Part shown: positions 14,187-53,963 of the stretch, in pieces
How positions within the stretch are numbered: the first letter of the stretch is position 1
Layout of the letters: each line of letters opens with the position of its first letter
Origin: an uncultured virus (IMG/VR IMGVR_UViG_3300033141_001794)
Lineage: Duplodnaviria; Heunggongvirae; Uroviricota; Caudoviricetes
Strand: one strand, 5' to 3'
IMG/VR virus record: IMGVR_UViG_3300033141_001794
DNA length: 64,000 nucleotides
Translations under genes and position numbers: made by a program
Notes under the pieces: model-generated
Seen by the model: the letters and a program-made list of their open reading frames with translations, nothing else
Databases searched by the model: none
What the model was told of the DNA's origin: nothing

Positions 14187-14215
14187 AAAAAGCACAGAAA
14201 AAGCATAAGGAAATT

Positions 14216-20288: not shown

Positions 20289-21048
20289 CGGTAAGTGGGG
20301 GAAGAACCACCAGAGGATGATGCTTGTACATAATATCGAGCATTATGCTATTGATATTGAACAAGACTACATGGCTGCAATTAGTGAATATTCCCCTAAT
20401 GCTGTTATTATCACAACAAATTCAGTTAATCATTTTCCCATAGCAGCCGATTGTATGGCAGCTGGGATACCGGTGTTTTGCGAAAAGCCTGTATGTGTAA
20501 AACCTAATCAGGTTCAGGAGTTGAAATATTACAGAGATCAGAAACCTATCTTCATGTCCGGACACCAGCTATGCTTTGACCCTGATCTTCAAGGGATAAA
20601 AGGCCATGGAGTTAATTATATCAATTCACAGCGTACTGGTGCCATTCCCCGAGATGAAGGCGCAATTCTTTCCCTGGCTGTTCATGATGTTGCTGTGGCT
20701 CAGTATCTTTTTGATGCTTATAGGTTTGAAATAGAACATGTTTCCGGCAACCTTCACAATGCAAAGATTGTACTCAGGTATGGGAAATCAATTGTCGAAA
20801 TCCTGGTTCAATCATTTGCCAATATTAAATTAAGATATATGACATTGGTATATTGTGGAGACTTAAAAAAGGTTGTTTATCCTGATCATTGGTATAGAAC
20901 CGATCTTCTGGAAGCTGAACTATTGTACTTCTTTAAATGTGTTGCTGAAAAGAAGCAACCCGATATCAACAGCCTGGACCGCACAATCATAGTAATGGAA
21001 ACCATATTCAAGATAATGGAGGAGTTAGATGGGTCTAAAACCGTGTAA
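20269..21048 (+). CDS. Gfo/Idh/MocA-family oxidoreductase
   Basis: IGNGKWGKNH, CEKP, LAVHD. Confidence 0.88.
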   Translation: MILQIGNGKWGKNHQRMMLVHNIEHYAIDIEQDYMAAISEYSPNAVIITTNSVNHFPIAADCMAAGIPVFCEKPVCVKPNQVQELKYYRDQKPIFMSGHQLCFDPDLQGIKGHGVNYINSQRTGAIPRDEGAILSLAVHDVAVAQYLFDAYRFEIEHVSGNLHNAKIVLRYGKSIVEILVQSFANIKLRYMTLVYCGDLKKVVYPDHWYRTDLLEAELLYFFKCVAEKKQPDINSLDRTIIVMETIFKIMEELDGSKTV

Positions 21049-21805
21049 GCAGTTAGAAAAAACGCTCCAGAAAATCCACTGGGTATTCGGACAAACCCGC
21101 GTTCATTACTGGGTTCACTTCGGGGCCTTAATAGGAATAGCTAAAAAAGATGGTGTGATACCTGATGGTGACATTGATGTGTGCTGCTATTATGAAAATT
21201 CAGACATGTGGCGACATATAAGACGAAAATTTGAGGGCCAGGAATATGTAATGTCAAAGGCCATGTTGAATGATGTAGACCGGGACAGGGTAATGTACAT
21301 GGGCTTTAATCCTAAAGAGAAGCAGACCAGAGAGCAGTATGCGAGTGAAAAGTTTTTCCCTCATATATGCGTCAGCTTCTGGTATCTCCATAAGGGAATA
21401 CGGTATTATTGCCATGATCAGCACCATGAGGTAAGCGGGGAAGACGTTCCAAAGGGAGGCTATTTCTTCAAAGGATTTGATAATCAATACATTGAAGACA
21501 TTTCCCTGTTTAAAAGGATAGAATGGCCTGGTATACCGGGAAACATTAAGGTAAACGCTCCCATGCTCCCCTGTTTAGAACAGATGTATCCCTGTTATAT
21601 TTACAATCAGCAGCGTTATATGGTACAGAATCATGAGGTACAGGAAGACAAATTAAGAGATACCTGTAGAACCGGTGCAACTTCAAGATATCAGGTCAGA
21701 GTTAAGTCAATGGCTGACTGGAACAATGAAAACCACGTCAGGCAGCAATTAGAGGAAAGCGAGCGTAACTGGAGGGTAAAGCTAAAGTTGATGAAAAAAA
21801 CCTAA
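21029..21805 (+). CDS. LicD-family nucleotidyl/phosphotransferase
   Basis: YW..FGALIG...GVIP-DGDIDV. Confidence 0.75.
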   Translation: MGLKPCKQLEKTLQKIHWVFGQTRVHYWVHFGALIGIAKKDGVIPDGDIDVCCYYENSDMWRHIRRKFEGQEYVMSKAMLNDVDRDRVMYMGFNPKEKQTREQYASEKFFPHICVSFWYLHKGIRYYCHDQHHEVSGEDVPKGGYFFKGFDNQYIEDISLFKRIEWPGIPGNIKVNAPMLPCLEQMYPCYIYNQQRYMVQNHEVQEDKLRDTCRTGATSRYQVRVKSMADWNNENHVRQQLEESERNWRVKLKLMKKT

Positions 21806-22286: not shown

Positions 22287-22574
22287 ATGACCACCACATA
22301 TATACCAAAAGACATTACAGCAACCATGTCACCGAACAAACAGAAGGTAGCTTCGGCAATGTCGCTATCTCCTCATGAGAAAAAGGAGGGGCGTGTTGAT
22401 TTTTCTATCGTTGTCGAGGAGAGGGTGATAGATAATATCAAAAAGCTGTGTTTCAAATGCGCCCATTACAGTTCCAGTCTTGGGGGCGATAGCAAAGAAG
22501 AGCTTACCAGTGTGAGTGCTTTTAAGAAAATAGTCAATGATAAAATTGATTATATTGCGAAGGAACTGGGTTAA
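22287..22574 (+). CDS. Hypothetical protein
   Basis: AGGAG SD; TAATG coupling to portal. Confidence 0.6.
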   Translation: MTTTYIPKDITATMSPNKQKVASAMSLSPHEKKEGRVDFSIVVEERVIDNIKKLCFKCAHYSSSLGGDSKEELTSVSAFKKIVNDKIDYIAKELG

Positions 22575-24646
22575 TGCAGCAGATAGGAAAGCTATACACC
22601 AAGGTTGCCGGTGAAAGAAATCCGACACTGGCAGCTCGCAGTAACTTTATTACTCGCCAATTTGATCGGTATGAGGAGTATTGGCAGTCTGATATAGAGC
22701 GGGTTATCAGGAATGCCCGTATGTACTGGCATGTAAACTTTGGTCAATGGCCTCAATTTGTAGTTGATAAACTCCGCGATGAAGGGCGCAGGCCACCTAC
22801 CTTTCCTATAATTCCCGATAAAATCGAAACCTTGATAGGATCCTTTCTTGCAAATGGGTTTGATATGAAATATGAGCCGATGGACGGTAAAATCGACTCT
22901 CTCACCCTGAAGCTCCAGGACATGTATTTCAGTGATAAGTACAACATGGACTGGGATTCCTCAGACATTGAATCTCTTTTGGATGGGTTTATCTGCGTAG
23001 GTTACGAGCGCATGACCGTTAATAACAAGGTGGACGATTTCGGGAACCTGGCCTTTGAGGTCCCTAACCCGCGCCATTTATATCTTGATCCTGGTTGGAA
23101 AACGATGTATACCAGGGACCTGCTTAATTATATGGTATACGACATTAAAACCGCTACTCAGATAATAGACACCTATCCTAATTCAAGTCAGAAGCTGAAG
23201 GACCTGGCAGAACGGGAAAAGCTCGAAGGTATTGATTACGGTTACAATTATGGTGGAGCCCCCAGATACCGGACTGTTGATGAGAAGTGGAGTTCAGGTC
23301 ATAAGGTAATAGAGATTCACTGGGTAGAGAAAACAGATAGATGGTGGGAATATGACAAGAAAAATCGCTGTTTCTTCCCCGATACTGGTTTTGCTCCGCA
23401 TAGCAAAGAGGACCGGCAGGCAAAGATTCAATATATTCAAATGATGAAGATAGGCCCTGATGATATCACAAAAATGAAGCAGGAAAAGCGCACCAAATAC
23501 ATTGAGGCTATTTGTCCCACTATTGATAATGAACTGTTCCTCACCTCCGGAAAAGACATTATCCAGACCGAAAACTGCAATCTCTATTGTAAGGGCATAC
23601 GATTTAAAGGTCAGTGGCAGGGAATTGTAGACAGGCTCTACGATCTTCAGATAGGTGTTAATAAGGGTGAAATGAACATCCAGGACATCCAGCAAAGGAC
23701 AGCAAAGGGCGCGTTTCTTCTGGACAGAGCTCTTGCAGGGGGGGATCCAGAACTTGAACAGCAAATTGAAGAGGCATGGAACGATCCGGCTGCGAGGATA
23801 TGGGTAGACGAAGGATCTACAGAGCAGCTGGCCAAGGGTGGCATAATTCCACTTCCAACAGCAACCGCAGACGCTTCGCACTTTAGACAGACCGAGCGCT
23901 ATTATGACCTGGCAGACAGGTTCTCCAAGGTGCCTGCAGCACAGGACGCACGAACCGAGGGAAGCAAGGAAAGCGGCAAGCTCTATGGAATGAAGTATGA
24001 GGCTGGCCTTGTCGGTATGAAGTACCTGTCCAAGGGTTATGAAACCAATAAGCGTGATAAAGCCGAGGCTTATTTGCTTCAGGCTAAAATTACTTATGCG
24101 GGAGTACCGCGAACCTTTGGAAAAGCGGATACTAAAGATGTTTTTTCCATTAATCAGCCTGCTACCAATACTCTAAATGGAAAAAAGGTTACGCTGGATG
24201 ATATTTCCAAGATGCCGAGAATGAAAGTGGTTATAACTCCTTCCCGGGCGGGCGTGAATGTTCGCACAGAAAATCGCAGACAGTATATGGAATATGCTGA
24301 AACGCTTGTGGATCCTGCAGACAGACTGTTGAGAATCATATTTACCGTTTCGGCTGCAGAGACTGGTGAGTTCAGCGATGAAACCAAGGAAGAGATTCGT
24401 CATGCTGGAGAATTGCTAAAAAAGGAAGCGAGTCTGGTAACTGCCGGTAATATTGTAGAAGCACAAAATAGATTGACCGGAGCCGAAATGATGGCTAAGG
24501 AAGCACAGGCCCAGAGTGGTGGTGCTGCTCCTGGTCCTCAGCAAGAAGCTCCTCCCCCTCAGCAAATGACTGAAGCAGAACCTACTGAGGAAGTTATGGC
24601 CGAGGGAACTGATATGGAAACTCAAAACCTTTCACAAATGCAATAG
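22574..24646 (+). CDS. Portal protein (P22-like podoviral)
   Basis: 690 aa; GQW...L..EGRRPPT.P.I..KI..LIG, G.V..L.D.Q...NK, ESG motif, Q/P-rich tail; upstream of scaffold and capsid. Confidence 0.85.
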   Translation: MQQIGKLYTKVAGERNPTLAARSNFITRQFDRYEEYWQSDIERVIRNARMYWHVNFGQWPQFVVDKLRDEGRRPPTFPIIPDKIETLIGSFLANGFDMKYEPMDGKIDSLTLKLQDMYFSDKYNMDWDSSDIESLLDGFICVGYERMTVNNKVDDFGNLAFEVPNPRHLYLDPGWKTMYTRDLLNYMVYDIKTATQIIDTYPNSSQKLKDLAEREKLEGIDYGYNYGGAPRYRTVDEKWSSGHKVIEIHWVEKTDRWWEYDKKNRCFFPDTGFAPHSKEDRQAKIQYIQMMKIGPDDITKMKQEKRTKYIEAICPTIDNELFLTSGKDIIQTENCNLYCKGIRFKGQWQGIVDRLYDLQIGVNKGEMNIQDIQQRTAKGAFLLDRALAGGDPELEQQIEEAWNDPAARIWVDEGSTEQLAKGGIIPLPTATADASHFRQTERYYDLADRFSKVPAAQDARTEGSKESGKLYGMKYEAGLVGMKYLSKGYETNKRDKAEAYLLQAKITYAGVPRTFGKADTKDVFSINQPATNTLNGKKVTLDDISKMPRMKVVITPSRAGVNVRTENRRQYMEYAETLVDPADRLLRIIFTVSAAETGEFSDETKEEIRHAGELLKKEASLVTAGNIVEAQNRLTGAEMMAKEAQAQSGGAAPGPQQEAPPPQQMTEAEPTEEVMAEGTDMETQNLSQMQ

Positions 24647-39760: not shown

Positions 39761-40138
39761 ATGGCAGTAATAACTGCGGCAGTAGCTACTATAATTGGTT
39801 CTATCCTTGCAGCTGGTACAGCAATTACCGGAGCAGCAATAGATTCCAAGAATGTAGATGAAGCCAATCGAATCGGTTTGCAGACGTATAACCAGGAGAG
39901 AGCCGACAAGCTTAAGAACGAAGAATACCAGAAGTCTATTAATCGGTGGGAAATGCGTCAGCGTGGAAAAGAATTTAAGCAGGGCATTGTAGAGTTTAAG
40001 CAGGGTGTGAAGGAGCGAAAAGCAGCTAAAGAGTTCGGACAGGGACAAACTGCTATGCAGAATACTCTTGGCCTTGTTAATCAAAATGCCCAACTGCGTG
40101 ATCTTTTTCTTAAAACTTCCATGAGGAGGGCCGCATAA
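39761..40138 (+). CDS. Internal virion protein (small ejection/pilot protein)
   Basis: Hydrophobic A/G/I-rich N-terminus plus basic coiled coil, typical of podoviral pilot proteins. Confidence 0.55.
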   Translation: MAVITAAVATIIGSILAAGTAITGAAIDSKNVDEANRIGLQTYNQERADKLKNEEYQKSINRWEMRQRGKEFKQGIVEFKQGVKERKAAKEFGQGQTAMQNTLGLVNQNAQLRDLFLKTSMRRAA

Positions 40139-41418
40139 TGCCTTTTAAACCAATTGTTAAAAGAACGGGTGCTTATGTTGCGAAAATAGGTTCTGATATC
40201 GGAAAGACTATCTCCGATCTTCCTGCAAAGATAGCAGCTGATAAGAAATCAAAGGTTGATGAAGAGCAACGAACAGCTTATCTCAAAGCGGTAAAAGAAG
40301 ATAGTTCGTTGTTGGATATATCACAGAAATCCTTAAAGAAAACGTATGCGGAGTATGTTAAACCTCTTGTAGACAAGGGAGTAATAAGCCAAGAGGAAAT
40401 GAATGCAAACCTGAAATCTTTTCCCATAGCAAGAGAGACTGATAAGTTAAATGACGTTTCTCTTGATAATTACAGAAAGAATTTAGGAAAGAAGTTTAAT
40501 GAGCTGATGGTTGATGCCCAGAATCGTTCAAAGAAGTATACGACTGACAAAACAATAAGCGGTGAAATGGCTCCTAAAACTCAGGTGAAAGCAGGGGCTC
40601 CGGTAGAAGACCCGCAGAGCATGAAGACTATGCCTATGCAAGGTGGCCCGGGACAGGAGCAGGGAGCTATTACTGAAACCGACATCACAGAAAGACCAGC
40701 TGAATGGGAAACTACTCAAGAAGCCCCGAAAACCCAGCAAGAGCTTATGGCGAATGTGGCGAAAGCAGACGCTTCAATTACCGGGAAAGAGGTTGAGGCC
40801 TCTACTGCCTATGGTTCTCTTCAATCCCAGGAACATCTTGATAAGATGGCTGCACAGGAGGCAAAGACAGCGAAGAAGGCTGATATGGACGAACTTGACC
40901 GACTGTATAAAATGTCTCAAATTAACTATAACAATGTAAAGGCTGGCAAGGTGCCAGAGGATATTGAACGGGCAAAAGAACATAGTGATGTTTCGTTTGA
41001 AAGACTTGTTAATGGTCTTGAAAAAAACATTGACGATATCGATGGTGAGCTTGAAGAAGATGAGGGAAAACTTAAAACAGCGCGTGAAGGGAAGCAATCA
41101 ATAAAAGGTGGTGTAGAAGTAGACTATGATGCTGTTAAAGGGGCCAAGGCAATAGTACGCAAAAAGAAAGAACAAATAACTGAGATTAAAAACAGAATTA
41201 ATAAGTTGAAAAGGGAGAGGGAAGAAGGAGAAACTGGCAAAGGCGAGAAAGTTACTTATAAAAAAACTCCTCCCGCTAAGAAACTATCTCCAAGGGGAAG
41301 AGGTACTTCAGCAGACGAGGAAGCTCTTAGAAAAGCTGAGGAAGCATTGAAGTTGAATCCCAAAGATTCTGTTTGGTTAGCTGTCCGGAAAAAAGCCTTA
41401 AGGAAACTGGGGCGTTGA
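40138..41418 (+). CDS. Internal virion protein (coiled coil)
   Basis: K/E-rich, 426 aa; coupled to the giant gene. Confidence 0.55.
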   Translation: MPFKPIVKRTGAYVAKIGSDIGKTISDLPAKIAADKKSKVDEEQRTAYLKAVKEDSSLLDISQKSLKKTYAEYVKPLVDKGVISQEEMNANLKSFPIARETDKLNDVSLDNYRKNLGKKFNELMVDAQNRSKKYTTDKTISGEMAPKTQVKAGAPVEDPQSMKTMPMQGGPGQEQGAITETDITERPAEWETTQEAPKTQQELMANVAKADASITGKEVEASTAYGSLQSQEHLDKMAAQEAKTAKKADMDELDRLYKMSQINYNNVKAGKVPEDIERAKEHSDVSFERLVNGLEKNIDDIDGELEEDEGKLKTAREGKQSIKGGVEVDYDAVKGAKAIVRKKKEQITEIKNRINKLKREREEGETGKGEKVTYKKTPPAKKLSPRGRGTSADEEALRKAEEALKLNPKDSVWLAVRKKALRKLGR

Positions 41419-44400
41419 TGCCTTTTGATCCACTGACTTACCTTGAAGAAGAAGAGGTAGAGCTTGAACAGCCTACCACTCCAGAGCCTATAGTAATCCC
41501 ACCACAGACAGAAGTTGAACCCTTTGACCCGTTGGCTTATCTTGAAGAAGAAGAGGTTGTAGAGCCGGTAGAAGAGGTTGCTGTTGAGGAAGCTCCCCCT
41601 TATGAACCATGGAAAGAATATGATCCGATTACTAAATACGCCCCCCCTCCTGTAGATGAAGAGATTGCAGAGCTTGAAGCAACCATGCCGGGGATAAGCA
41701 CTGCTCCCCCAGTACCCTTTCCTGAAGTAACACCTTCTATTGAGCAGCCAATAGCACAACCAGAACCAATTGCAAGCACCTTGGCCGTTGAACCTGATTA
41801 TGCAGAAACAGAGAGGTTAATAGCAGCTGGTCCTGAAGCTGGAGATGTGACAACCCCATTTAAAGCGTTGGCAGTAGGAACCGGCGATATTGCACAGGCG
41901 AATGCTTATGCGGCTGACTTCCTCACCAGGAAGAGAGCAGAGAACTTAAAAGAAGAAGGGTTTAAGGGGCTAAAGTCTGGTTACAAAGCTGCAGTAAGAG
42001 ATAGAGCTGGAAGAATTGTTGAACCTGAGAAAAAAGATTTTGGTGGCAAAGCAGAAATCCCAGACAATCGACTAAAATCAATCGGCACTAAATTAGACAA
42101 CATGATCAGTGAAGACTGGAAAAAGGAAGTGCATGAGGTAGCTGGCCGTGATATCTCCATGAAGAACTTTGAAAAGGACCCGCTGGCTTTTATGAACACG
42201 GTCTTTACCCTGGCAGCTAACACAGCTCCTCTTATTGCTGAACAAGCAGTATTGAGTAAGTTTGGTAATATTGCTATGCCTGGTTTTGGAATGGTGACTG
42301 GTGGGGCTGGAATGATGGCCGTTGAAACCGGTAACTTTCTGCAACAGGCTGAGATGATGGAACAGGGCCTGAACGATAAGCAAAAAAAGGAGTGGCAGAA
42401 TGTAGTTGATAAATACGCCCCTCTTTATGGCATGTCTTCCGGACTTGTGGAATACTCCGGTAATGCTGTAGGTGTGCTTGGTGCGGTTAAAGCTATCGGT
42501 AAGAAGTTAGTTGCGAAACAATTGCTTGAAAGAGTTGCTGGTGTTGTCGGCGAAGGACTGGAAGAGTTAGGCCAGGAAGCATTGATGAATCGCTTTATGG
42601 GAAAAGCCATAGAGGATATGAAGGCCAAAGATAAAAACTTTGCTCCTGACTGGAAACCTGGCAAGCTCGGTGATGCTTTTAAAGTTGGTCTGGTAGTTAG
42701 TCTTGTTCATTCCGGTGGAGTTGGGCTGGTCCAGAAGATCGTTGAACCAAAAGAAGCAGCTCCCCCTCCAATTAGCCTTAAGCCATTACCTGAAGAAAAG
42801 AAAGTATTCAAGGACATTAAAGCGCAATGGCCGGAAATGACAGAAGAAGAGCAGGACAATGCTTTGCCGGCATTTACTGAGGACCAGAAGAAAGAGCTGC
42901 TCGATATTGGTCTTAGCCAACAGCTTGATGATGTGAACGCAGAAACGATGAAAGATTTCAAGATACAATCACTAATATCTGGTTTTAATGAGCTGACCGA
43001 GAAAGAGCAAGACGAAGCGCTGGAGGGTTTAACTGAAGAGCAGAAAGCAAAGTTGCTGGACATTGGCTTTGACGCACAGGCTGAAATAGATAAAAGGAAA
43101 GAGTTTGACCCAGAGGCCTATCTTGCAGAGGAAGATGAGCCCGAAGCTCCTGACCTGGTTAAACGAGCGCAGGAAGCTATTACCGCAGATATACAGGAAA
43201 TAACTGGTGTTGATGCTACAGATGCTGTGCCAAAGATTGAACGCAGACAGGGACCCAGGACCACTCTTAAAGACCTTGAATCAGCATACAGAAAAGAGCT
43301 TCCAGGTTTCTCTGATGAACAGTATAAACAAATGTCAGCTATCCATGACAGAAGTGATTTAACCGATGTGCAGGGGAAGGCTTCTTATAATACTGGTGTT
43401 GAAGCTATTCGAGCAAATCCGAGGGAGGATTACGTATTAATTGAAGGATCCACGGATCTTGACAAATTTAAACTTATCAATGATAACAAAGGTCATAGCT
43501 ACGGAAATGATTATTTAGTGGTAGCTCACAACGGACTTGCAGAGATCGCTGATGAAGGTGGAATAGAATACCATCATTTAAGTGGTGATGAGGGGGGAAT
43601 GTACGCATACGTCCCTAAATCAGAGGTTTCCAAGGTGGTTGACACAGTAAAGAAGATGCGAGGCTTTATAAACAATATGCAGATTAAGGCACCTAATAAC
43701 AAGCTCGTTAAGGGTGGCATTTCAATAGGTATATCTGTAGAAGGATTCGATAAAGCTGATGAGCTTTTGGGAACTGCAAAAACTAAATTGGGAAGAAATT
43801 CGATTTATGTAGACGATATAATAAAAAAAGATTATAATATAGATGAGGACATAGGGACCGATTATTCGGCAGAATATGAGAAAAATGGTTTCATCTCAAC
43901 CAGGGAGAAAAAAGATGACACACAGCCTCCCGATACGGGCAAAACCAAGGAAGTCGAAGGAATTGCTCCTGGTGAACGGAAAACCGGTGACAGAACACAA
44001 AGGCGTACCGTTGGAAAAGTTGACCAGGGCAAGCAAGAAGCTAAACCTACAGAAGTAAAAAAACCGGCAGAACCTGAGACAAAATTTGGACCGGCAGTAA
44101 CCAGCGCACTGGGACAGGTAGCTACAGAACAGCTGGATTTTGACCTGGACTCTATCGAAAGGAGAATCGAAAAGGGTAAAGAAATAACCCGAGAGGATCT
44201 GGAAGGTACTACCCTGTATAATATCAAGAACCTCCCAGAGTTTAACGCAATAGTAAAACGATTTGAAGACAGCCCAGCCGAAGCTGCAGCATTTATCAGA
44301 AAGCAGATGGAGCCGGGAGAGAAGGAGGTAAAGAAAAAGGAACCGGAGAAAAAGCCAGAAGGAGTTGTTCCTCAAAAGGCAACAAAGGAGCAACAGCGAG

Positions 44401-47400
44401 AAGTTCTTGATAAAGCAGTTGTAGGCACAGGCGAGTTTAATATAGGCGAGGTGTATACTCAGGAAATAGGCCTTGAAGAACTTCCGGAAAGACCAGTATT
44501 AATAACCAAAAAGAATGAAGATGGCAGCGTTGAGGGTTATTATGTGGGAAGTGGTTCTCTTACTGAAATAAAGGTTGGAATAGGACCCGCAGCATTAATA
44601 CCGGCCAAATTTGAAGACCCTGGCAAAGAGTTGAATGTTCCTGCTTATGATCAGAAAACATTAAAGCAATATGTCCAGAAGGTGTTTAAACCTGAAGAAG
44701 CAAAGGCACCGGAAAAGAAACAGATACCAGTTAAAGAAGAAAAACCCACAGACGAATTCGCACCAGCTGAACTAATGAAGGAGAGGGATAAGCAGGCGAC
44801 TGAGATAAAGGAAAAAACAAAAGCAGAGAAGAAAAAGGAAGAGGTTAAGGGACATTTAAAAAGCGCACTTGACAAGTTTAAGGAAATTAATGATATCTTT
44901 GGAGAGGCAGGCGCACTCTCAGGAAAAGAGATTGATGAAACAACATACAGTAAAATTAAACCGTTATTACAGGAAGCGTTAAATGATATATTAAAGGCAG
45001 GTAAGGCTGCAGCTGAATTTGTAACACTTGCAATTGAAAATCTGACACCGGCAGCGAGGCCTTATTTTGAGAGATTCGTAACTAAGGATATGCAGAAGGA
45101 GGTAGAAGTTGAGCCAATTAGCATTGACGATACAAAACCATTGGAAGGAGTACAAGCCGAAGGCGTACTCCCAAGCCCTGAAGCAGTACGGAAAGAGCCT
45201 GAAAAAGTTCTTCGAGGACCTGGCGAGCCAAGCGAGGGTGTACAACGTGGACGTAAGGGACCAGCAGATGAAGAACGGCCACAACCACCTACAGGCGAAG
45301 ATGATAGCAGACGAGATGATGTTAAAAGACAAGGTACTGACAGCGCCGGAGAAGGGCTTCGAGGGCGGGGACTGGCCGAAGGATTAGTTTCTGACTATCA
45401 GATTACTCCTGAAGATGTAAAGTATTATGAAGAAGCTGGCAAATGGGCCAAGTTTGACCAGAATGTAAAAGTAATAAATCTTCTTAAGAGGCTGCAGAAA
45501 GAGGACCGGCAGGCCACAAAAGAAGAACAGGGCATACTTTCTAAATATGTCGGTTGGGGCCAGTTTCCCGATGCTTTCAATGTTGATCAATGGACAGACA
45601 ACAAGGCGCTGAAAGCCAGAAGGAAGAGATTACAAAACCTTCTTACCGAAGAAGAATACAAAGCGGCGCGAGGGTCCACACTTAACGCGCACTATACAGC
45701 ACCGGTCATTGTTGAAAAGATGTATGACGCTATCAAGCAAATGGGCTTTGATGGTGGCTTTGTGCTTGATCCTGCCTTTGGTGGAACTGGCATGTTTACC
45801 GGTGTTATGCCTGCTCAAATGAAAGCCAAGTCAAATATTACCGGAATTGAGCTGGATCCTATCAGCGCACAGATCGCAAAGCAGCTGTACCCACAGAGCG
45901 ATATCCGACAGGAGGGTTTTGAAGAGGCGAAGCTTGCTGACAACTCCTATGATCTTGCAATATCCAATGTTCCCTTTGGCGCTTACTCTGTATATGACAA
46001 GAAATATGCTAAAGAGAATTACTTTATACATGATTACTTCTTTGCAAAGTCTCTTGATAAGGTGCGGCCAGGTGGATTAGTTGCGTTTGTAACGAGTGCC
46101 GGTACCATGAATTCTACAAGATCGAAAAACCTCAGAGAGATGTTGAGTAAGAAAGCTAACTTCCTGGGAGCCATCCGATTACCTGGTGATGCTTTCAAAA
46201 GAATTGCCGGTACTGAAGTAACTACTGACATTATCTTCCTGCAGAAGCTTCCCGAAGGAGGACAGCCCACACATGCAGGAGACTGGCTTATTAGTAAGGA
46301 TACTGGAGTTAATAGCCCTGTCAGTGGTAAGCCATTAATGATAAATGAATATTTTGTAAACAACCCTGAAATGATGCTGGGGAAGGTTGTTGATGACAAG
46401 CTTCATCCTGGAAGGGCTGCACTTAAATCTACTGGTGATATTGAGCAGGGCTTAAAAAATGCTATCAGAAAATTACCGAAAGACGTAGTTACTGAAGCTG
46501 GCCGGGGAGTGAGCAATAGAGTGACTCCCTCAGAAACTATCTTCGCTCCTGATGATGTGAAACCAGGTGCTTTCACTATAAAAGATGGGGTATTATACAG
46601 TAATGAGGATGGCAAGCTTGTAAAGTCTGAAAAGGGGGGAGCCGCAGCAAAACGCATAAAAGGCCTTATCGGAATACGAGACATTGAGCGCGTTCTTAGA
46701 AAGGAAGAGCTGGCAGGAACTGACGAGGGGGCAGACAAGGCTCGGAAAAAGCTTAACACTGTTTATGACAAGTTTGTAAAATCTCATGGTTATATAAATG
46801 ACAGACCAAACGCTTTGGCTTTTAATGATGATCCTGATTATAACAGGCTCGTTGCTCTTGAAGTAGAGTATGATGCTTCGGTCCGCGAGAGAGGCAAGCT
46901 GATTAAAAAGGCTTCTGCAAAGAAAGCCGATATCTTCACTCAAAGAGTTATACCCAGACATGAAGAGGTTGAGTCTGCAAATTCCGCTAAAGACGCTCTC
47001 CTGCACTCTTTAAATGAATACGGCCGTGTTAATATTAATTACATGGCTGACATTTACGACAAAACTACTGAAGAAGTTTTAGATGAGCTGCAGGGTATTA
47101 TTTATAATAACCCTGATACCGGACAGTGGGAAACAAAAGAAGATTATCTTTCTGGAAATGTACGACAGAAGCTTGAACAGGCTGAATTTGCAGCAAAAGA
47201 CAATCCCTCAATGTATGAAGAGAACGTGCGGGAGTTGAAAAAGATACAGCCTGAAGATATTGCACCAACAGAGATATCTGCCAGAATGGGAGCTAACTGG
47301 ATCCCGAAAAATTATATAAAAGATTTTGTCAGTATTATAACAGATGCGGAATCGCAATATATCAGGGTATCCTATTCTGATAAGCTTGCAAGCTGGGATG

Positions 47401-50400
47401 TTGGTATGGAACGCTGGGCTTCAACCAACTACGCGAAGATGAATGAGGTGTACGGGACCCAGGATAGGTCGGCGCTTGTTCTTATTAATGATCTTCTCAA
47501 TTTTAGAACTCCCACCATAAGAAGAAAAGAGGGGGACGCTTCCGTTGTAGACAAGGAAGCTACAATGGCAGCTCGGGAGAAGCAGAAAAAGATCAAAGAG
47601 GAGTTTGGTGAGTGGCTGTGGTCAGATAGCGAGAGAGCCGACAAGTTGGTCCGAACTTATAACGATCAGTTTAATAATACAACCTTTCCTACTTATGATG
47701 GATCTCATCTTGCCTTGCCAGGAATAGCAGATTACCTGGAGGGGAAGCCTTTTGAACTCAGGCCGCACCAGAAAGATGCTGTCTGGAGGATTGTAAAAAC
47801 CGGGAACACTCTTCTGGCTCATGAGGTTGGAGCTGGCAAAACATTTGTTATGAGCGCTGCGGTTATGGAATTGAAGCGCCTTGGCATTGCACAGAAGCCT
47901 CTTATTGTAGTTCCTAACCACATGATGAAGCAATTGCCACGGGAATTTTTAAGCATATACCCAAATGCTAACTTACTGGTATCGACAAAAACAGACCTAA
48001 ACAAGAAGAACCGTAACCGGTTTATGAGCAAGATCGCAATGGGTAACTGGGATGGTGTTATCGTTCCTATGAGCAGTTTTGGCCTTCTTCCCATGAGTAA
48101 GAAAAGCCAAGCAGATTATATCGCCAGGGAGATAGACGATCTTGAAATAGCTATTCGACAAATGAAAGAGGAAGAGGGCGGGGGAAGGGATAATAAGCTC
48201 ATCAAGCAAATAGAGGGTATGCGTAAAAGAATGGCCGAGAAATACCAGGCATTGCTTGATAACCCGAAAGATGATACTGTTACCTTTGAAGAGCTTGGTA
48301 TTGATTTTATGATGGTAGATGAGGCCCACAACTTTAAAAACCTTTTCTTTGCAACAAAGCAGGGGCGCATTGCAGGAGTATCAAACACAGCATCCAAAAG
48401 AGCAAGTGATCTGTTTATGAAAACCAGGTACTTGAATAAGCTCAGACCCGGGCGAAACCTTGTTTTCTCCACAGGCACACCGATTGATAATACTATTGCA
48501 GAGATGTACACTATGCAGCGCTATCTCCAAATGGAATCTTTGGAACAGACAGGCCTAACCCATTTTGACGCATGGACGAGCATGTTTGCAGAGCCTGTTA
48601 CTGGCTGGGAGCTTTCCCCTGATGGAAAGCGAATGAGGGAACATACCAGAATGAGAAGCTTTGTAAACCTCTTCCAGTTAAACCAGATGTTCAGGGAGGT
48701 TGCTGATGTTAAGGTTCAGAAGGATCTGAACTTAAAAGTACCGAAACAGAAAACCGGTGGACCACAGATAGTTGCAGCAAAAGCTTCTGAACATTTAAAG
48801 GTGTATGTTGATTCTATTATAGCGCGTATGGAGAACATGCCTCCGGATCCCCGCGAGGACAATTTTCTTAAAGCTACGAATGATGGGCGCAAGGCAGCGC
48901 TGGATATGAGGCTGATTGATCCGCACCTTCCAGATAACCCTGACAGCAAGATTAATAAAGCCATTGAAAACATATTTGATATTTGGAAAAAGACCAAAGC
49001 TGATAAGTCTACTCAGATTGTATTCTGTGATCTGTCCACTCCTTCCAAAGAGAGAAGGAAGCTCAAAGAAGAGCTGGAAGAACGAGTGAAACAGGCAGAG
49101 GCAGAAGGACGCGAGCCAGATGTAACACAAGATGAGTGGCTTTCTCTTCAATCGAACTTCTCGGTATATGACGATGTAAGAGAAAAGCTTATTGAAATGG
49201 GTGTTCCCGAGAAAGAAATTGCTTTTATCCATGACTATAACTCTGATGAGAAAAAGGCCAGCCTGTTTAAAAAGGTGAACGATGGCGATATCAGGGTGGT
49301 AATGGGATCTACTGCGAAAATGGGCGAAGGCACCAATATGCAGGAACGGGCTTATGCTCTTCATCATTTGGATGCACCATGGAAACCAGGATCTATTAAG
49401 CAGCGCGATGGTCGTATTATCCGACAGGGTAACACCAATGAGGAAGTAGAGACTTTCCGGTATGTGACCGAGCAGAGCTTTGATGCTTATTTGTGGCAGA
49501 TTCTTGAAAACAAGGCACTTATGATAGAACAGGTGCTTACCGATCCGACCAAGCAAAGGGTTGATGATGTTAGCATGGTGGCTCTTTCTGCAGCACAGGC
49601 AAAGGCAGCGGCAAGCGGGAATCCCCTTCAGATGGAAAAGGTCAAGGTTGATTCTGATGTGTCGAGACTTCAGGCTATGAAGAAGTATCATGACAGGGAC
49701 CAATTCAGATATAAACGTGAAGCTAAAGAGCTACCGGACCGGATTGCCATTAAAAAGAAGAAGGTTGCTGGTGTTGAAAAGGACCTGAAGAAGAGAACAG
49801 ACACTCTTAAGGGTGATAAATTCAAAGCCATTATTGATGAAATAGAATATGATAAGCGTAGTGCTGCGGATTTGGCAATGGAAAAAATTGTCAAGAAGAG
49901 GCCTGGTCCCCAAGATGCACTTGGAAACATTGGTGGTTTTGATTTTACTATGAGATTTGATAAGCTTGACCCTACTTTGTTTGAATTTATTGTTAAAGGT
50001 GAAAATGATTACCCGACAGGATTTACAAAGACAGCTGCAGGAGGGTTGTCGAGAATGGTAAATGTTGTTTCCGGTTTAGAGGACCAGATTAAGACAGAGG
50101 AAAAAGGTATATCCAAGCTGGAAAGGGAACTTAATACCGTTAAAGAACAGGTTGGAAAGCCGTTTGATAAAGAGGAAGAGCTTACAAAGCTCGTTAAGCG
50201 CCAGGAGGAAGTCTTTAAGGAAATCCAGAACGAGGGACAGGAAGACACTGTTGAGGAAATTCTTGATGAAATGGGCGTTACTGACGTTGAAACCAAAGAG
50301 CCTGCAGTAGATGATACCGATGTAGGAATTAATGTTGAGGACTATAACTTCGACAAGAAAACTTACACTACTCCCCAGTGGGAAAAGAAGTATTATGGTA

Positions 50401-53400
50401 AGTATAAGGGTAATGATTTTGTAACCGATGGCACTCTTTTTTATCGGGACTACTGGGGCCTTACAGAGGCGTTCAAAGAAAGCGGGGAAGGCACAGAACT
50501 AACTCCAGAGAATCTTGAAAAGGCTATTCCGGAGCCTGTTGATAGAGAAGCGAAGCCTTTAAAGGTATATGCGCTTGATAAGAAGATAGACGCAGTTTTG
50601 TTTTATGATGGTGAAGCTTACAGGTCTATCGACAAAAAACTATATAATACTATCCGTTTGCAATTCCCAGGCGCTACTTTTAAATTTGGACCAGAAGAAC
50701 GCTCTCCAATTAGCTTTTATCGCGACGATGTGTTTGAGGGCGTAGTAATGCCCATACTCCCAAACGAAAACACTCGTGCCGTTATCAAAAACCTTGAATC
50801 AGACAAAGGTACCGGAGGCAAACAGCTCTATAGCATGACCGAGAGTGAGGCCCGGGACAAGAAGCCAAAGACTCTTCCTGAAGAAACGGTCACTGATATA
50901 GTTAAATCCATGGGATCGCCAGAAGCTACCCGTAACCAGCTCTTAACCGAAGCTAACGCTAAAGAGGGGGAAAAGTTTTTAACGCGGTGGGAGCGTATCT
51001 ATCAAGGCGCAAAAGACGCTACAGTATCAATCCGGAAGGTCCAGAAGATATTTGAAAAGGAATTGGGCGTAAAGGTAACTCCCATCAATGATATTGAATA
51101 TGCCATTGATAGAGTGCGGGGATCCGGTGGAACTGCTAAACAGTTTGTTGCTGATTGGCTCTCTCCTATATTTGAAGAGATAAGGAAATCCACAAAAGAG
51201 GTAAGGCTGCACCGAAAGGCTGGGCAAATTGGAAAGATATCAAGGAACCTGGAACAATACCTGATAGCCAAGCGCCAGGTGTGGTTGTATGAGAACAAGC
51301 CGAAGTATGACGATGTTGGATATACGCAGGAATGGAGCCAGGGTGTTATCGATGATGTTGAAAGCGGAAAAACTCCGGATGCGGCATTGATACAGGCCAG
51401 TGCTAATAAGATATGGAACTATTCTGTTAAGCTGAAGGGTATTAAAAAATCATTTGGCATTATAGATGAAGAGTTTGAAAAGATGTTGAGAGAGCCTTAT
51501 TACGTTCCATTCTTCAGGGATGTTGAGAAAAAGGTTGTCCCGGGGATCCGTGGGGAGAAGTTTACTGCAATGTCGAAGGGCATTAAAAGGATTAAGGGCT
51601 CGAAATCAGGCAGGAATATCAGGAATGTCTTTGCTAATCTTATTACCATTACCAATGAAACTCTGGTAAATGCAGCACGAAACGAGGTTTTTAACGGTAT
51701 TATTAAAATGTCAGAGGAGTCTACTGAGATAGGCGAACTTATTAAAAAGCTTCCTCCGCGCTGGAAGGTAGCCGGGACCATAGAGCATAGACATGAAATC
51801 GATAAGTTTCTCTCTCCTGAATTGAGTAAGATTATTGAAGAGCTGGGCGCGAAAGAGGGCGTTAAAATAAAGATGGGGAAATATACCGGCTCTTTTAGCA
51901 GCGAGAATAAAGAAGTAATGACCATGTTCGGAGCGACTGAATCTACCAAAGCGCATGAATTAGGACATTTGATTGATCAGGATGTTATTCGTCTGCAGGA
52001 TATGGTCCGGAAATATCCCAAAGAAATGGTAGCGGTTGGATCCACCAGGTATGAAGGAGGGGAAGCAACCCAGTCTTATATAAGATATGTGCATAAGAAC
52101 GAAGAGCTTGTTGCAGAATTCGTGTCTATGTACATTACTGACCGGACCAGGCTTGCAGAACTGGCGCCAGATGCTATAAGAGACTTTGAGGGTAGGATCC
52201 AGAAGCATAAGACGCTGAAGAAATTGATAAAGCTTTACCCGAGCAGGCGCAAAGCAATTGAGAAGATTACAGAAAAGAACTGGATTCTTGATACTTCCAT
52301 ACCCAGTGACGAGGACGTTATAAGCGGTTTTGTTGGTGGAAAGATGGAGCATTACAGGGTGCCGGCTGAACTTGCAAGTGCAGTTAAGAACCTTCATCCT
52401 GAACAGATCCCCATAGCGCTGCGAGTACTGACAATCCCTACTTCTATATTAAGAAAGGGCGCGGTCCAGTTTAATGTTGACTTCTTTATTCCCAACTCCC
52501 TTAGAGATCAGATCGGTGCAACATTTACAAGAAAGTTTTATCCTGTAGTCGATTATCTCGCAGGCCTGAAGCATTACATAGCACAGGACGAGGTATACAA
52601 GCAATATCTGAGAATGGGTGGTGCAATGGATTCTCCTGAATCCGGTGTTGTACAATTACAGAGAAGCGCAAAGGAGCTGATCTACGGATCCAAGCGCGGT
52701 GAATTCTTTGACCCTCATTACTGGAAAGAAACTGGTTTAATGCGGAAAACGCTGGATATAACGAGTTATTTTGCAAAGGCACCATTCAGGGCGATTGCTA
52801 AACTTGGAGAAGCTTCAGAGCAGGCTACAAGACTCGGTGTATTTGAGAGAGGGTTGAAAAGCGGGGAAAATGTTATGGCTGCAATTCATTCGGGCAGACA
52901 GGCTTCTTTAGAGTTCCAGCGGTTTGGAACACATGGGCGCGTACCTAATCAGATAGTTCCTTTTATAAATGTTGCGCTCGAGGGAGTGGATCGGGCGATC
53001 CGTTCGGCCTATGGGAACCCGAAACGGTTTGCCATGGCAGCATTTACCTATGGTATTGCCCCGACAATTGCACTTACTATATGGAATACTACTGGTGATG
53101 ATGAAGACGAATATAAGAATGTCAGTGACAGGGACAAAGAAAATAATTACATTATAATGAGGCACGATGGTACCGGCCGTTATTGGAAAATACCGAAGTC
53201 CCATATAGTCAGAATGATAGCGAACCCTTTTCAATTAGCGTGGGAACGGTCTATAGGTACTTCAATGGGTAGCTGGCACGATCCGGCAAGTACTGTCTGG
53301 AGAGCTGCGAGCCCGATTGATGGACTGGGCGCTATTGTTCCAACAGGCTTGAAGCTGCTCATTGAACCTATTGCGAATTATGACTTCTATTGGCGACAGA

Positions 53401-53963
53401 CTATTGAATCACACAACATGAGGGCAATAGGACAACCAGGCTTAAGAGCTGAAAAAGGTACTTCTGAAACTCTGAAGAAGATCGGAAAGGCGCTGAACAT
53501 ATCTCCTATAATGATGCAGCATGAGATTAATACATTGTTTTCAGGCTTGGGAAGACACACGCTGTTTGCAGTAGACTGGGCGCTGGGAAAGACCGGGATA
53601 CAGCCAGAGACAGAAATAACAGAAAACCGAATACCGGTCCTGCGAAGATTCTTAGGGAAAGCAGAGGATTGGAAGGGTGAGGCTTCCCGGGCTGTACGTG
53701 ATATCAACAAGGCAGTATCAGCAATAGATAGAATGTCTGTTAAGGGCCTGATGAAGTACAATAAGTACAAACCGGTCGAAGCGTTAAAGGTATATAGAGA
53801 AAACAAGGCAATGAAGGTGAAGTTGCTCAGAAGAAAGATTGAACTGTTGAAAGCAACGAGAATTACCCAGGACCTCTATGATGAAATTCTGGCAGAAATA
53901 CAGAAGGCGCAGGAAAAGAGTGCGAAGGCTGAAGATGTTGTAATTAAAGCTATGGAGGAGTAA
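41418..53963 (+). CDS. Giant (~4,180 aa) DarB-like polyvalent protein: GGDEF-like, N6-adenine MTase, SNF2 helicase, clamp-like domain, HExxH, LPD38-like C-terminus
   Basis: DLDKFKLINDNKGHSYGN...SGDEG (~43340-43800); DPAFGGTG, GIELD, SNVPFG (~45770-45980); AHEVGAGKT, DEAH, TGTP, HHLDAPW.P..I.QR.GR..RQGN (~47820-49440); HELGH (~51954); ATG 41418 overlaps the upstream TGA. Confidence 0.88.
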   Translation: MPFDPLTYLEEEEVELEQPTTPEPIVIPPQTEVEPFDPLAYLEEEEVVEPVEEVAVEEAPPYEPWKEYDPITKYAPPPVDEEIAELEATMPGISTAPPVPFPEVTPSIEQPIAQPEPIASTLAVEPDYAETERLIAAGPEAGDVTTPFKALAVGTGDIAQANAYAADFLTRKRAENLKEEGFKGLKSGYKAAVRDRAGRIVEPEKKDFGGKAEIPDNRLKSIGTKLDNMISEDWKKEVHEVAGRDISMKNFEKDPLAFMNTVFTLAANTAPLIAEQAVLSKFGNIAMPGFGMVTGGAGMMAVETGNFLQQAEMMEQGLNDKQKKEWQNVVDKYAPLYGMSSGLVEYSGNAVGVLGAVKAIGKKLVAKQLLERVAGVVGEGLEELGQEALMNRFMGKAIEDMKAKDKNFAPDWKPGKLGDAFKVGLVVSLVHSGGVGLVQKIVEPKEAAPPPISLKPLPEEKKVFKDIKAQWPEMTEEEQDNALPAFTEDQKKELLDIGLSQQLDDVNAETMKDFKIQSLISGFNELTEKEQDEALEGLTEEQKAKLLDIGFDAQAEIDKRKEFDPEAYLAEEDEPEAPDLVKRAQEAITADIQEITGVDATDAVPKIERRQGPRTTLKDLESAYRKELPGFSDEQYKQMSAIHDRSDLTDVQGKASYNTGVEAIRANPREDYVLIEGSTDLDKFKLINDNKGHSYGNDYLVVAHNGLAEIADEGGIEYHHLSGDEGGMYAYVPKSEVSKVVDTVKKMRGFINNMQIKAPNNKLVKGGISIGISVEGFDKADELLGTAKTKLGRNSIYVDDIIKKDYNIDEDIGTDYSAEYEKNGFISTREKKDDTQPPDTGKTKEVEGIAPGERKTGDRTQRRTVGKVDQGKQEAKPTEVKKPAEPETKFGPAVTSALGQVATEQLDFDLDSIERRIEKGKEITREDLEGTTLYNIKNLPEFNAIVKRFEDSPAEAAAFIRKQMEPGEKEVKKKEPEKKPEGVVPQKATKEQQREVLDKAVVGTGEFNIGEVYTQEIGLEELPERPVLITKKNEDGSVEGYYVGSGSLTEIKVGIGPAALIPAKFEDPGKELNVPAYDQKTLKQYVQKVFKPEEAKAPEKKQIPVKEEKPTDEFAPAELMKERDKQATEIKEKTKAEKKKEEVKGHLKSALDKFKEINDIFGEAGALSGKEIDETTYSKIKPLLQEALNDILKAGKAAAEFVTLAIENLTPAARPYFERFVTKDMQKEVEVEPISIDDTKPLEGVQAEGVLPSPEAVRKEPEKVLRGPGEPSEGVQRGRKGPADEERPQPPTGEDDSRRDDVKRQGTDSAGEGLRGRGLAEGLVSDYQITPEDVKYYEEAGKWAKFDQNVKVINLLKRLQKEDRQATKEEQGILSKYVGWGQFPDAFNVDQWTDNKALKARRKRLQNLLTEEEYKAARGSTLNAHYTAPVIVEKMYDAIKQMGFDGGFVLDPAFGGTGMFTGVMPAQMKAKSNITGIELDPISAQIAKQLYPQSDIRQEGFEEAKLADNSYDLAISNVPFGAYSVYDKKYAKENYFIHDYFFAKSLDKVRPGGLVAFVTSAGTMNSTRSKNLREMLSKKANFLGAIRLPGDAFKRIAGTEVTTDIIFLQKLPEGGQPTHAGDWLISKDTGVNSPVSGKPLMINEYFVNNPEMMLGKVVDDKLHPGRAALKSTGDIEQGLKNAIRKLPKDVVTEAGRGVSNRVTPSETIFAPDDVKPGAFTIKDGVLYSNEDGKLVKSEKGGAAAKRIKGLIGIRDIERVLRKEELAGTDEGADKARKKLNTVYDKFVKSHGYINDRPNALAFNDDPDYNRLVALEVEYDASVRERGKLIKKASAKKADIFTQRVIPRHEEVESANSAKDALLHSLNEYGRVNINYMADIYDKTTEEVLDELQGIIYNNPDTGQWETKEDYLSGNVRQKLEQAEFAAKDNPSMYEENVRELKKIQPEDIAPTEISARMGANWIPKNYIKDFVSIITDAESQYIRVSYSDKLASWDVGMERWASTNYAKMNEVYGTQDRSALVLINDLLNFRTPTIRRKEGDASVVDKEATMAAREKQKKIKEEFGEWLWSDSERADKLVRTYNDQFNNTTFPTYDGSHLALPGIADYLEGKPFELRPHQKDAVWRIVKTGNTLLAHEVGAGKTFVMSAAVMELKRLGIAQKPLIVVPNHMMKQLPREFLSIYPNANLLVSTKTDLNKKNRNRFMSKIAMGNWDGVIVPMSSFGLLPMSKKSQADYIAREIDDLEIAIRQMKEEEGGGRDNKLIKQIEGMRKRMAEKYQALLDNPKDDTVTFEELGIDFMMVDEAHNFKNLFFATKQGRIAGVSNTASKRASDLFMKTRYLNKLRPGRNLVFSTGTPIDNTIAEMYTMQRYLQMESLEQTGLTHFDAWTSMFAEPVTGWELSPDGKRMREHTRMRSFVNLFQLNQMFREVADVKVQKDLNLKVPKQKTGGPQIVAAKASEHLKVYVDSIIARMENMPPDPREDNFLKATNDGRKAALDMRLIDPHLPDNPDSKINKAIENIFDIWKKTKADKSTQIVFCDLSTPSKERRKLKEELEERVKQAEAEGREPDVTQDEWLSLQSNFSVYDDVREKLIEMGVPEKEIAFIHDYNSDEKKASLFKKVNDGDIRVVMGSTAKMGEGTNMQERAYALHHLDAPWKPGSIKQRDGRIIRQGNTNEEVETFRYVTEQSFDAYLWQILENKALMIEQVLTDPTKQRVDDVSMVALSAAQAKAAASGNPLQMEKVKVDSDVSRLQAMKKYHDRDQFRYKREAKELPDRIAIKKKKVAGVEKDLKKRTDTLKGDKFKAIIDEIEYDKRSAADLAMEKIVKKRPGPQDALGNIGGFDFTMRFDKLDPTLFEFIVKGENDYPTGFTKTAAGGLSRMVNVVSGLEDQIKTEEKGISKLERELNTVKEQVGKPFDKEEELTKLVKRQEEVFKEIQNEGQEDTVEEILDEMGVTDVETKEPAVDDTDVGINVEDYNFDKKTYTTPQWEKKYYGKYKGNDFVTDGTLFYRDYWGLTEAFKESGEGTELTPENLEKAIPEPVDREAKPLKVYALDKKIDAVLFYDGEAYRSIDKKLYNTIRLQFPGATFKFGPEERSPISFYRDDVFEGVVMPILPNENTRAVIKNLESDKGTGGKQLYSMTESEARDKKPKTLPEETVTDIVKSMGSPEATRNQLLTEANAKEGEKFLTRWERIYQGAKDATVSIRKVQKIFEKELGVKVTPINDIEYAIDRVRGSGGTAKQFVADWLSPIFEEIRKSTKEVRLHRKAGQIGKISRNLEQYLIAKRQVWLYENKPKYDDVGYTQEWSQGVIDDVESGKTPDAALIQASANKIWNYSVKLKGIKKSFGIIDEEFEKMLREPYYVPFFRDVEKKVVPGIRGEKFTAMSKGIKRIKGSKSGRNIRNVFANLITITNETLVNAARNEVFNGIIKMSEESTEIGELIKKLPPRWKVAGTIEHRHEIDKFLSPELSKIIEELGAKEGVKIKMGKYTGSFSSENKEVMTMFGATESTKAHELGHLIDQDVIRLQDMVRKYPKEMVAVGSTRYEGGEATQSYIRYVHKNEELVAEFVSMYITDRTRLAELAPDAIRDFEGRIQKHKTLKKLIKLYPSRRKAIEKITEKNWILDTSIPSDEDVISGFVGGKMEHYRVPAELASAVKNLHPEQIPIALRVLTIPTSILRKGAVQFNVDFFIPNSLRDQIGATFTRKFYPVVDYLAGLKHYIAQDEVYKQYLRMGGAMDSPESGVVQLQRSAKELIYGSKRGEFFDPHYWKETGLMRKTLDITSYFAKAPFRAIAKLGEASEQATRLGVFERGLKSGENVMAAIHSGRQASLEFQRFGTHGRVPNQIVPFINVALEGVDRAIRSAYGNPKRFAMAAFTYGIAPTIALTIWNTTGDDEDEYKNVSDRDKENNYIIMRHDGTGRYWKIPKSHIVRMIANPFQLAWERSIGTSMGSWHDPASTVWRAASPIDGLGAIVPTGLKLLIEPIANYDFYWRQTIESHNMRAIGQPGLRAEKGTSETLKKIGKALNISPIMMQHEINTLFSGLGRHTLFAVDWALGKTGIQPETEITENRIPVLRRFLGKAEDWKGEASRAVRDINKAVSAIDRMSVKGLMKYNKYKPVEALKVYRENKAMKVKLLRRKIELLKATRITQDLYDEILAEIQKAQEKSAKAEDVVIKAMEE
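43810..43838 (+). promoter_or_regulatory. Internal sigma70-like promoter embedded in the giant gene
   Basis: TAGACG-17 nt-TATAAT in an AT-rich patch (encodes VDDIIKKDYN). Confidence 0.5.
43915..44058 (+). CDS. Candidate overprinted small basic protein (47 aa), alternative frame
   Basis: AGGGAG SD plus ATG 43915 downstream of the internal promoter; the host frame here is a disordered linker. Confidence 0.4.
   Translation: MTHSLPIRAKPRKSKELLLVNGKPVTEHKGVPLEKLTRASKKLNLQK
45109..45387 (+). CDS. Overprinted TnpV-like protein (92 aa) nested in the giant gene
   Basis: AAGGAGGT SD 5 nt before TTG; HWKEYKPKAYSQ.L..G..L..F.D.A.QA...Q.M...A.E resembles TnpV; the host frame is a low-complexity linker. 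Confidence 0.6.
   Translation: MSQLALTIQNHWKEYKPKAYSQALKQYGKSLKKFFEDLASQARVYNVDVRDQQMKNGHNHLQAKMIADEMMLKDKVLTAPEKGFEGGDWPKD

Follow-up and report, generated by a model that had tools for sequence, protein, structure and literature searches.

A TnpV-like gene very probably nested in frame +1 of the giant polyvalent methyltransferase-helicase gene of an uncultured phage

Can the low-complexity linker of a giant phage protein double, in another reading frame, as a gene in its own right? The question is raised by a stretch of 64,000 nucleotides (nt) from an uncultured virus of the Caudoviricetes (IMG/VR record IMGVR_UViG_3300033141_001794; the whole stretch is hereafter called the window), whose largest open reading frame (ORF) encodes a giant polyvalent protein of the DarB-like methyltransferase-helicase type. 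A sequence-only reading had proposed that this gene hides a second, TnpV-like gene just ahead of its methyltransferase domain, opened by a Shine-Dalgarno (SD) sequence and a TTG codon. Our comparison of sequences indicates that positions 45109–45387 of the + strand are very probably a genuine gene that encodes its own protein within the giant gene, in frame +1.

The nested ORF runs for 92 codons from TTG 45109 to a TAG at 45385–45387, with the SD sequence AAGGAGGT at 45096–45103 lying 5 nt (AGAAG) before the start and encoding K-E-V in the main frame, so that the proposed signal and the 92-residue alternative-frame ORF are both present as described. An alternative-frame TAG at 45103–45105 bounds the ORF upstream, leaving TTG 45109 as the sole start that retains the conserved N-terminus. 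The two frames also differ in composition as had been claimed, the main frame being G/E/R/P-rich filler and the other ordinary, with G, E, R, P, D, S, K, Q, and T making up 78.5% of main-frame residues 1246–1338 (16% hydrophobic), compared with 53% of the nested product (30% hydrophobic) and 57% of the whole giant protein (30% hydrophobic).

Evidence that this ORF is a gene comes from homologous giant genes. Eighty IMG/VR loci with such genes (~40% identity), found with an 11-protein alignment, were examined with a 2-kb flank, and distances were measured to a fixed point of the methyltransferase module, the anchor (326 nt for the window); a scan of viral contigs with a single protein gave no match, the alignment-based scan succeeding. 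No stop interrupts the methyltransferase frame as far as the 5' end of the flank in 75 of the 80 loci, and in the remaining five it is open for 180–516 codons; 200 nt upstream of the anchor the open stretch has a median of 108.5 codons in frame +1 compared with 21 in frame +2. A tblastn search of the 92-residue window peptide against the 80 loci gave 16 weak matches sharing the motif x-W-x-x-x-x-P-K-x-Y, 15 of them in frame +1, with 13 of these 15 lying 281–353 nt from the anchor and the other two further upstream, at 431 and 452 nt. Most loci hold an ORF of 80–110 codons with an ATG and, 5–9 nt 5' of it, AGGAGG or AAGGAGGT. A profile of the homologues matches 74 of the 80 loci, in frame +1 in all 74, a count with some circularity, as 41 of these loci went into training the profile. 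The small protein evolves faster than its host, with mean identities of 23% for the small protein and 50% for the methyltransferase N-terminus, and the pairwise identities of the two are correlated (Spearman 0.40, a value reached in 0 of 300 permutations).

The relatives also place the nested product in a family. Of 41 positional homologues, 22 match the Pfam TnpV family (PF14198) at E≤0.001 and eight score at least 27 bits (the gathering score), the best reaching 56.9 bits, and at E≤0.1 a match is obtained for 25 of the 42 alignment rows. When the profile of the 41 homologues, with the window excluded, was searched against 1,046 six-frame window ORFs of at least 30 residues, the sole match was 45106–45384 (E 6.7e-9; next-best window ORF E 1.7), which gives the window ORF profile-level homology to proteins matching PF14198. 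The product is 14–31% identical to its relatives and carries the nearly invariant P17, L31, and A63, and the nearest ESM Atlas cluster is labelled 'TnpV protein family protein' (score 0.87), a lead only. The full-length TnpV architecture (~111 model positions, ~116–123 residues) is not seen in the 92-residue window protein, and the phage-type relatives align from positions 11–31 of the 111-position PF14198 model, the N-terminal part being missing. By sequence, then, the window protein is a divergent TnpV-like protein whose family membership holds at the profile level; the resemblance to TnpV noted in the sequence-only reading survives in this indirect form, through the homologue profile and the relatives in PF14198, and fails as a direct Pfam match.

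Substitutions in the relatives follow the nested frame. Twelve non-overlapping pairs of related loci, with 70–99% DNA identity over the nested ORF, were picked from 44 pairs, and their differences were sorted by main-frame codon position, position 1 of the main frame being the wobble position of the nested frame. Over the nested ORF, positions 1, 2, and 3 carry 248, 143, and 122 differences (48, 28, and 24%), compared with 539, 353, and 2,061 (18, 12, and 70%) over the downstream methyltransferase region, a contrast with a chi-square p of 3e-39. The shift towards nested-frame wobble is seen in 11 of the 12 pairs, the exception having only 12 differences, and 11 of 12 pairs have more amino-acid identity in the nested frame than in the main frame (pooled 0.82 vs 0.72). 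These patterns indicate purifying selection on the nested frame in the relatives, and the alternative frame, whose conservation in homologous giant genes had been put forward as a check, is conserved, uninterrupted, and marked by its own wobble periodicity. The main frame is likewise held open. Synonymous resampling of the small-protein codons in the window introduces a mean of 9.7 main-frame stops, and none of 500 trials kept that frame open, whereas the actual sequence has no stop; the probability that the main frame stays open has a median of 0.002 over 42 loci, all 42 of which are open. With selection acting on both frames, this is true dual coding, with a TnpV-like protein written over a disordered linker, in which amino-acid selection appears to act mainly on the small protein whilst both frames are kept open.

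The same arrangement extends to bacterial genomes. A scan of one genome per species gave 80 loci, 72 of them with a methyltransferase anchor, and the profile matches 45 of these 72, in frame +1 in 43 of the 45; 41 of the 42 matches upstream of the anchor lie inside a stop-free stretch running into the methyltransferase module. Sixteen loci from contigs labelled Verrucomicrobiota, Acidobacteriota, and a few other groups resemble the window, with the nested ORF 284–440 nt before the anchor and, in the 12 examined, a host ORF starting just ~20–40 codons before the nested ORF. The methyltransferase-helicase ORFs of Verrucomicrobiota and Acidobacteriota (L082–L100 and others, e.g. L083:2926–2990) share a conserved N-terminus, M-A-x-R-R...Q-L-D-L-F-S, just before the nested gene, of which Q-L-D-L-F resembles the beta-clamp-binding consensus. 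A second arrangement, found in 25 loci, mostly Clostridia, places a canonical TnpV of 116–118 residues over a low-complexity linker after an ArdC-N-like domain, 0.9–3 kb ahead of the methyltransferase module. There were 22 PF14198 matches in five bacterial genomes; 18 could be scored, with five of the 18 in a host frame of at least 599 codons, three in a host frame of 93–147 codons, and the rest free-standing. Since most scored copies are free-standing, TnpV is an autonomous gene family, some members of which are read through by giant genes.

Cultured phages carry the nested ORF in seven of eight cases (VvAW1, PEp14, Itty13, SopranoGao, Bcep22, Gervaise, and PBC5), with profile E-values of 1.5e-28 for VvAW1, 5e-11 for Bcep22, and 3.5e-6 for Gervaise; a tblastn search with a typical member gave no match in plasmids and one weak match in phages. 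The supposition that standard gene callers would miss the gene is correct here, the records of VvAW1, SopranoGao, Bcep22, PEp14, and Gervaise annotating the giant coding sequence (CDS) alone. It does not extend to the Clostridia copies. Four nested bacterial products are on record exactly, three of them named 'TnpV protein' by NCBI (e.g. WP_243421142.1 and WP_027642640.1), while six other nested products, phage-type included, were not found in the protein collection; one NCBI giant protein spans the linker corresponding to a nested TnpV. In Pseudomonas phage Itty13 (L163, MW460249.1), three 'hypothetical protein' CDSs are annotated opposite the giant methyltransferase-helicase ORF, which runs without a stop for over 846 codons 5' of the anchor.

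Several points weigh against a nested gene, and those drawn from the window itself concern chance. A T-poor, purine-rich linker could leave frame +1 open, and the codons for K-E-V could spell an SD sequence, without any gene being present. At 93 codons the ORF is the longest +1 stretch of the giant gene (runners-up 85, 76, and 69), but when the giant gene is resampled synonymously its longest +1 stretch averages 96 ± 19 codons (P(≥93) = 0.49) and falls most often at the overlap region itself (227 of 1,000 resamplings), so the length by itself is at chance level. The T content of the stretch is 14%, compared with 23% for the giant gene, and a hydrophilic linker without T at codon position 2 yields few +1-frame stops, making the openness of this frame weak evidence alone. 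Furthermore, AAGGAGGT is present twice in the giant gene, and SD-like cores are enriched over the whole region rather than just 5' of the start, the SD-core profile at the start being unspecific; because of this enrichment the SD sequence alone proves little. The codon-usage score over the overlap, however, is +0.123 bits per codon (log-likelihood) in frame +1 and +0.162 in the main frame; across 411 other segments of the giant gene the +1 score has a mean of −0.65 and never reaches +0.123. Codon usage and cross-genome conservation of the nested ORF are beyond chance. With similarity recurring at the same position and phase in distant loci, relatives matching Pfam TnpV, a held-out profile recovering the ORF, and substitutions tracking alternative-frame wobble, it is extremely improbable that the ORF is fortuitous, and conservation in frame +1, profile membership, wobble substitutions, and codon usage in the window together support the proposal of a real nested gene. 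Chance probably does explain the second and fourth longest +1 stretches (45823–46080 and 45613–45822; 85 and 69 codons), both within the methyltransferase module, because relatives show main-frame periodicity there, with 70% of differences at position 3.

Ribosomes translating the giant ORF could also reach the nested frame by shifting to +1, giving a product of the N-terminal ~1,245 residues that ends in a TnpV-like domain. In prfB, an internal SD sequence near the shift site stimulates +1 shifting, a precedent for SD-stimulated shifting of this kind. Sinorhizobium phage PBC5 (L161, AF448724.1) adds to the case, with its TnpV-like part (1660–1979) forming the in-frame C-terminus of the upstream orf33, which counts against separate initiation. 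The methyltransferase frame of PBC5 is open only from 1406. The in-frame fusion is either a real variant, making another mode of expression conceivable, or a one-base error in an old record, which would look identical. In the window, however, the TAG at 45103–45105 stands right before TTG 45109, so that a shift ahead of the conserved block would have hardly any space. Of 109 unique loci, 72 have an alternative-frame ATG in the span from the upstream stop to the conserved block, compared with 6 and 13 for the other frames, and AGGAGG followed 3–11 nt later by an alternative-frame start, upstream of the block, is seen 21 times against 3.2 expected for the motif alone. The brevity of the host sequence preceding the nested ORFs of Verrucomicrobiota and Acidobacteriota, and the existence of free-standing TnpV genes, also speak against frameshifting, which we regard as improbable. 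We infer instead that the nested ORF is initiated internally and independently.

A further alternative accepts the family elsewhere and takes this divergent copy to be a relic, no longer translated or functional. Consistent with this, the window ORF gives no PF14198 row at E≤10 and does not reach the 27-bit gathering score, its identity to relatives is low, it starts with TTG, and the gene is dispensable in some lineages, with no match in 6 of the 80 viral loci, in 27 of the 72 anchored bacterial loci (within the flank examined), or in P1 darB. The case for the nested gene is itself limited in that the selection tests rest on relatives that are not close relatives of the window, and in that the rows of the profile were chosen partly by eye: 41 of 64 candidate ORFs were aligned with the window product, and the 23 omitted (L002, L006, L007, L010, L031, L033, L036, L037, L046, L048, L049, L051, L053, L054, L056, L063, L070, L074, and L076–L080) were near-duplicates, had starts cutting the conserved block, or were unlike sequences. 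A relic is nonetheless difficult to reconcile with an intact frame, a perfect 8-base SD sequence at 5 nt, retention of P17, L31, and A63, gene-like codon usage, and a confident fold prediction. In addition, the relative P0003, with 87% identity over 70 residues, retains both the frame and the start of the window ORF. Loss of function in this copy is therefore considered very improbable. P0003 is a called 140-residue protein on a 562-base ENA contig that becomes a CHASE8 periplasmic sensor domain after residue 68; the contig is probably a chimeric assembly, and P0003 was used solely for its close relationship to the first 70 residues.

Apart from P0003, the nested product found no match in a collection of 5.8 billion protein clusters. 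Five further matches in the representative library (E 4e-6 to 1e-3) were repeat proteins and were rejected as repeat-driven. A tblastn search of the nested ORF against GenBank phages gave no match, blastn of the region returned short methyltransferase pieces only, and PHROGs and Pfam searches with the nested ORF alone gave sub-threshold noise only. AlphaFold2, supplied with the 42-row alignment, predicts helices at residues 3–15, 17–55, and 60–76 followed by a disordered tail (predicted local distance difference test score 86.2, predicted template modelling score 0.72), a result given little weight, as confident prediction comes easily for helical hairpins. Foldseek comparison of this model with the PDB and BFVD yielded no match at E≤0.001; the top viral row, Q8W6J4_2 (E 0.17), may be the PBC5 protein. 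Prediction of a complex between the TnpV-like protein and methyltransferase residues 1339–1800 scored 0.01, which gives no verdict either way.

How might such a gene be expressed, and what might it do? Ribosomes would initiate internally on the giant-gene mRNA at TTG 45109, guided by AAGGAGGT, and would produce a TnpV-family protein of 92 residues and three helices, the same bases specifying, in the main frame, an unstructured, G/E/R/P-rich segment that links a helical domain to the methyltransferase module. A search for promoter-like sites on the + strand at 44500–45600, ahead of the ORF, found none, which leaves the giant-gene mRNA as the simplest source of translation. As to origin, a free-standing tnpV lying between modules may have been bridged when the modules fused and thereafter read through in its −1 frame, which could be tolerated because the linker accepts almost any stop-free hydrophilic sequence. 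In overprinting, the newer frame is usually the disordered one. We infer that TnpV was autonomous and was later read through by the fused polyvalent ORFs, the low-complexity frame being the younger.

The small protein would act in trans, and our guess is that it serves as a small, non-enzymatic accessory factor of a module for mobile-DNA entry and establishment, made together with the injected giant protein. Direct action on the methyltransferase-helicase is possible, if doubtful; no functional tie was found between the small protein and the methyltransferase, which counts against the nested gene as a partner of its host, and free-standing TnpV genes occur without a methyltransferase-helicase neighbour. 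For Tn4451, TnpX alone suffices for transposition, which would argue against a role of TnpV in excision. Such a role has been postulated from the likeness of TnpV to lambda Xis (PMC3158075), and a second source suggests a role in the transfer of mobilizable elements (PMC12084326). A bolder idea, which we hold only tentatively and consider unlikely as it stands, treats TnpV and the disordered linker of an injected giant polyvalent protein as one unit that is ancient and obligatorily dual-coded. Phages and conjugative elements of several bacterial phyla would have kept it in a single phase (+1) because the two proteins need to be made from one mRNA, together in time and place, with TnpV acting as a dedicated escort, a packaging or transfer adaptor, or a regulator of the giant protein.

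The host gene occupies 41373–53963 on the + strand (4,196 codons from TTG 41373), and its product combines GGDEF, Eco57I/MTase (N6-adenine), SNF2/ResIII helicase, Helicase_C, and LPD38 domains in Pfam, matching PHROG 10089 'DarB-like antirestriction' at E=0. With several effector domains (methyltransferase, SNF2 helicase, and LPD) in one polypeptide, it is polyvalent and DarB-like. The database copy P0009 is 100% identical and 4,181 residues long, so the true start is probably ATG 41418 rather than TTG 41373; this ATG overlaps the final stop base of the preceding ORF (40138–41418), which would fit translational coupling. Just 5' of the overlap, a conserved helical main-frame domain (44886–45092, + strand, ~residues 1172–1240) is defined by alignment with P0010, P0011, P0013, and P0029. 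The dual-coding stretch follows at 45108–45386 (+ strand), read in the main frame as a low-complexity linker by its composition and its variability in homologues, and the conserved N6-adenine methyltransferase module starts at 45387–46166 (+ strand), from residue 1339, with Pfam MTase matches at residues 1471–1598. Among full-length homologues, the nearest (39% and 33% identity) have a linker of variable length and low complexity, and the domains flanking it on both sides align well.

The GGDEF (diguanylate cyclase-like) domain lies within the giant protein at residues 694–806 (43452–43790). The window is identified as phage DNA by + strand genes for the small and large terminase, the portal, and Erf-type and exonuclease recombination functions. 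Between the large terminase (2115–4223) and the portal gene (22574–24643), some 15 + strand genes at 7668–21802 give weak PHROG matches to glycosyltransferase, nitroreductase, radical SAM, formyltransferase, and aminotransferase, an apparent sugar or nucleotide-modification cluster in an unusual location.

A nested gene of this kind would add a missed gene to this phage and to the cultured phages Bcep22, PEp14, VvAW1, SopranoGao, Itty13, and Gervaise. It would also represent deeply conserved same-strand dual coding in prokaryotic mobile elements, with position and phase held as the host protein diverges to ~40% identity; to our knowledge, few cases of this sort exist. The filler-like linker with its faint motifs would be explained as a shadow of TnpV-like codons, the main-frame L-E-G lying over the alternative-frame H-W-K-E, and the uncharacterised TnpV family would be placed beside anti-restriction polyvalent proteins. 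Were the idea of an obligatorily dual-coded unit true, it would provide a first functional context for TnpV, an orphan for 30 years, and 'filler' linkers would be seen as shaped by a hidden gene. No published description of TnpV nested in polyvalent genes was found in the open literature, a search that does not prove novelty, and the main text of Iyer et al. 2017 contains none of 'TnpV', 'overlapping', or 'alternative frame'.

Among known systems, the closest is TnpV of Tn4451, Tn4453, and related elements (PF14198), with which the window protein shares a family at the profile level, a small helical make-up, and the motif W/L-x-E-x-x-P-x-x-Y..L...G.L...L...A.E, TnpV likewise coming from mobile elements. 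The window protein differs in having 92 residues, in lacking the N-terminal part and a direct Pfam match, and in lying inside another gene, the TnpV gene of Tn4451 being separate. Nearer in arrangement are the TnpV copies of Clostridia conjugative elements, which lie in giant ArdC-N/methyltransferase/helicase genes and are likewise in frame +1 over a low-complexity linker, with their own SD sequence and ATG. These, however, are full length (116–118 residues) with a strong Pfam match, neither of which holds for the window copy, and they follow the N-terminal ArdC-N-like domain 900–3,000 nt before the methyltransferase, in contrast to the window copy, which adjoins the methyltransferase module. 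The host gene is of the same kind as P1 darB, to which it has a weak match, combining an N6-adenine methyltransferase with a helicase, but P1 DarB starts directly with the methyltransferase, and no TnpV-like ORF was present in the 6.5 kb examined.

Nested same-strand phage genes are themselves familiar, with Rz1 in Rz of lambda, and B in A and E in D of phiX174. Like the gene proposed here, they lie in a shifted frame on the same strand, wholly inside the host gene; each has its own ribosome-binding site, as the putative SD sequence would be here. Such genes and the TnpV family are thus already known, and NCBI names the canonical nested copies. The apparent novelty is that TnpV is coded repeatedly over polyvalent-protein linkers, in conserved phase, in both phages and conjugative elements. 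Unlike in the Rz1 and phiX174 cases, the host frame is here the disordered linker of a ~4,200-residue protein, the nested family also exists free-standing, and the arrangement is common to phages and to bacterial contigs labelled Verrucomicrobiota, Acidobacteriota, Clostridia, and others.

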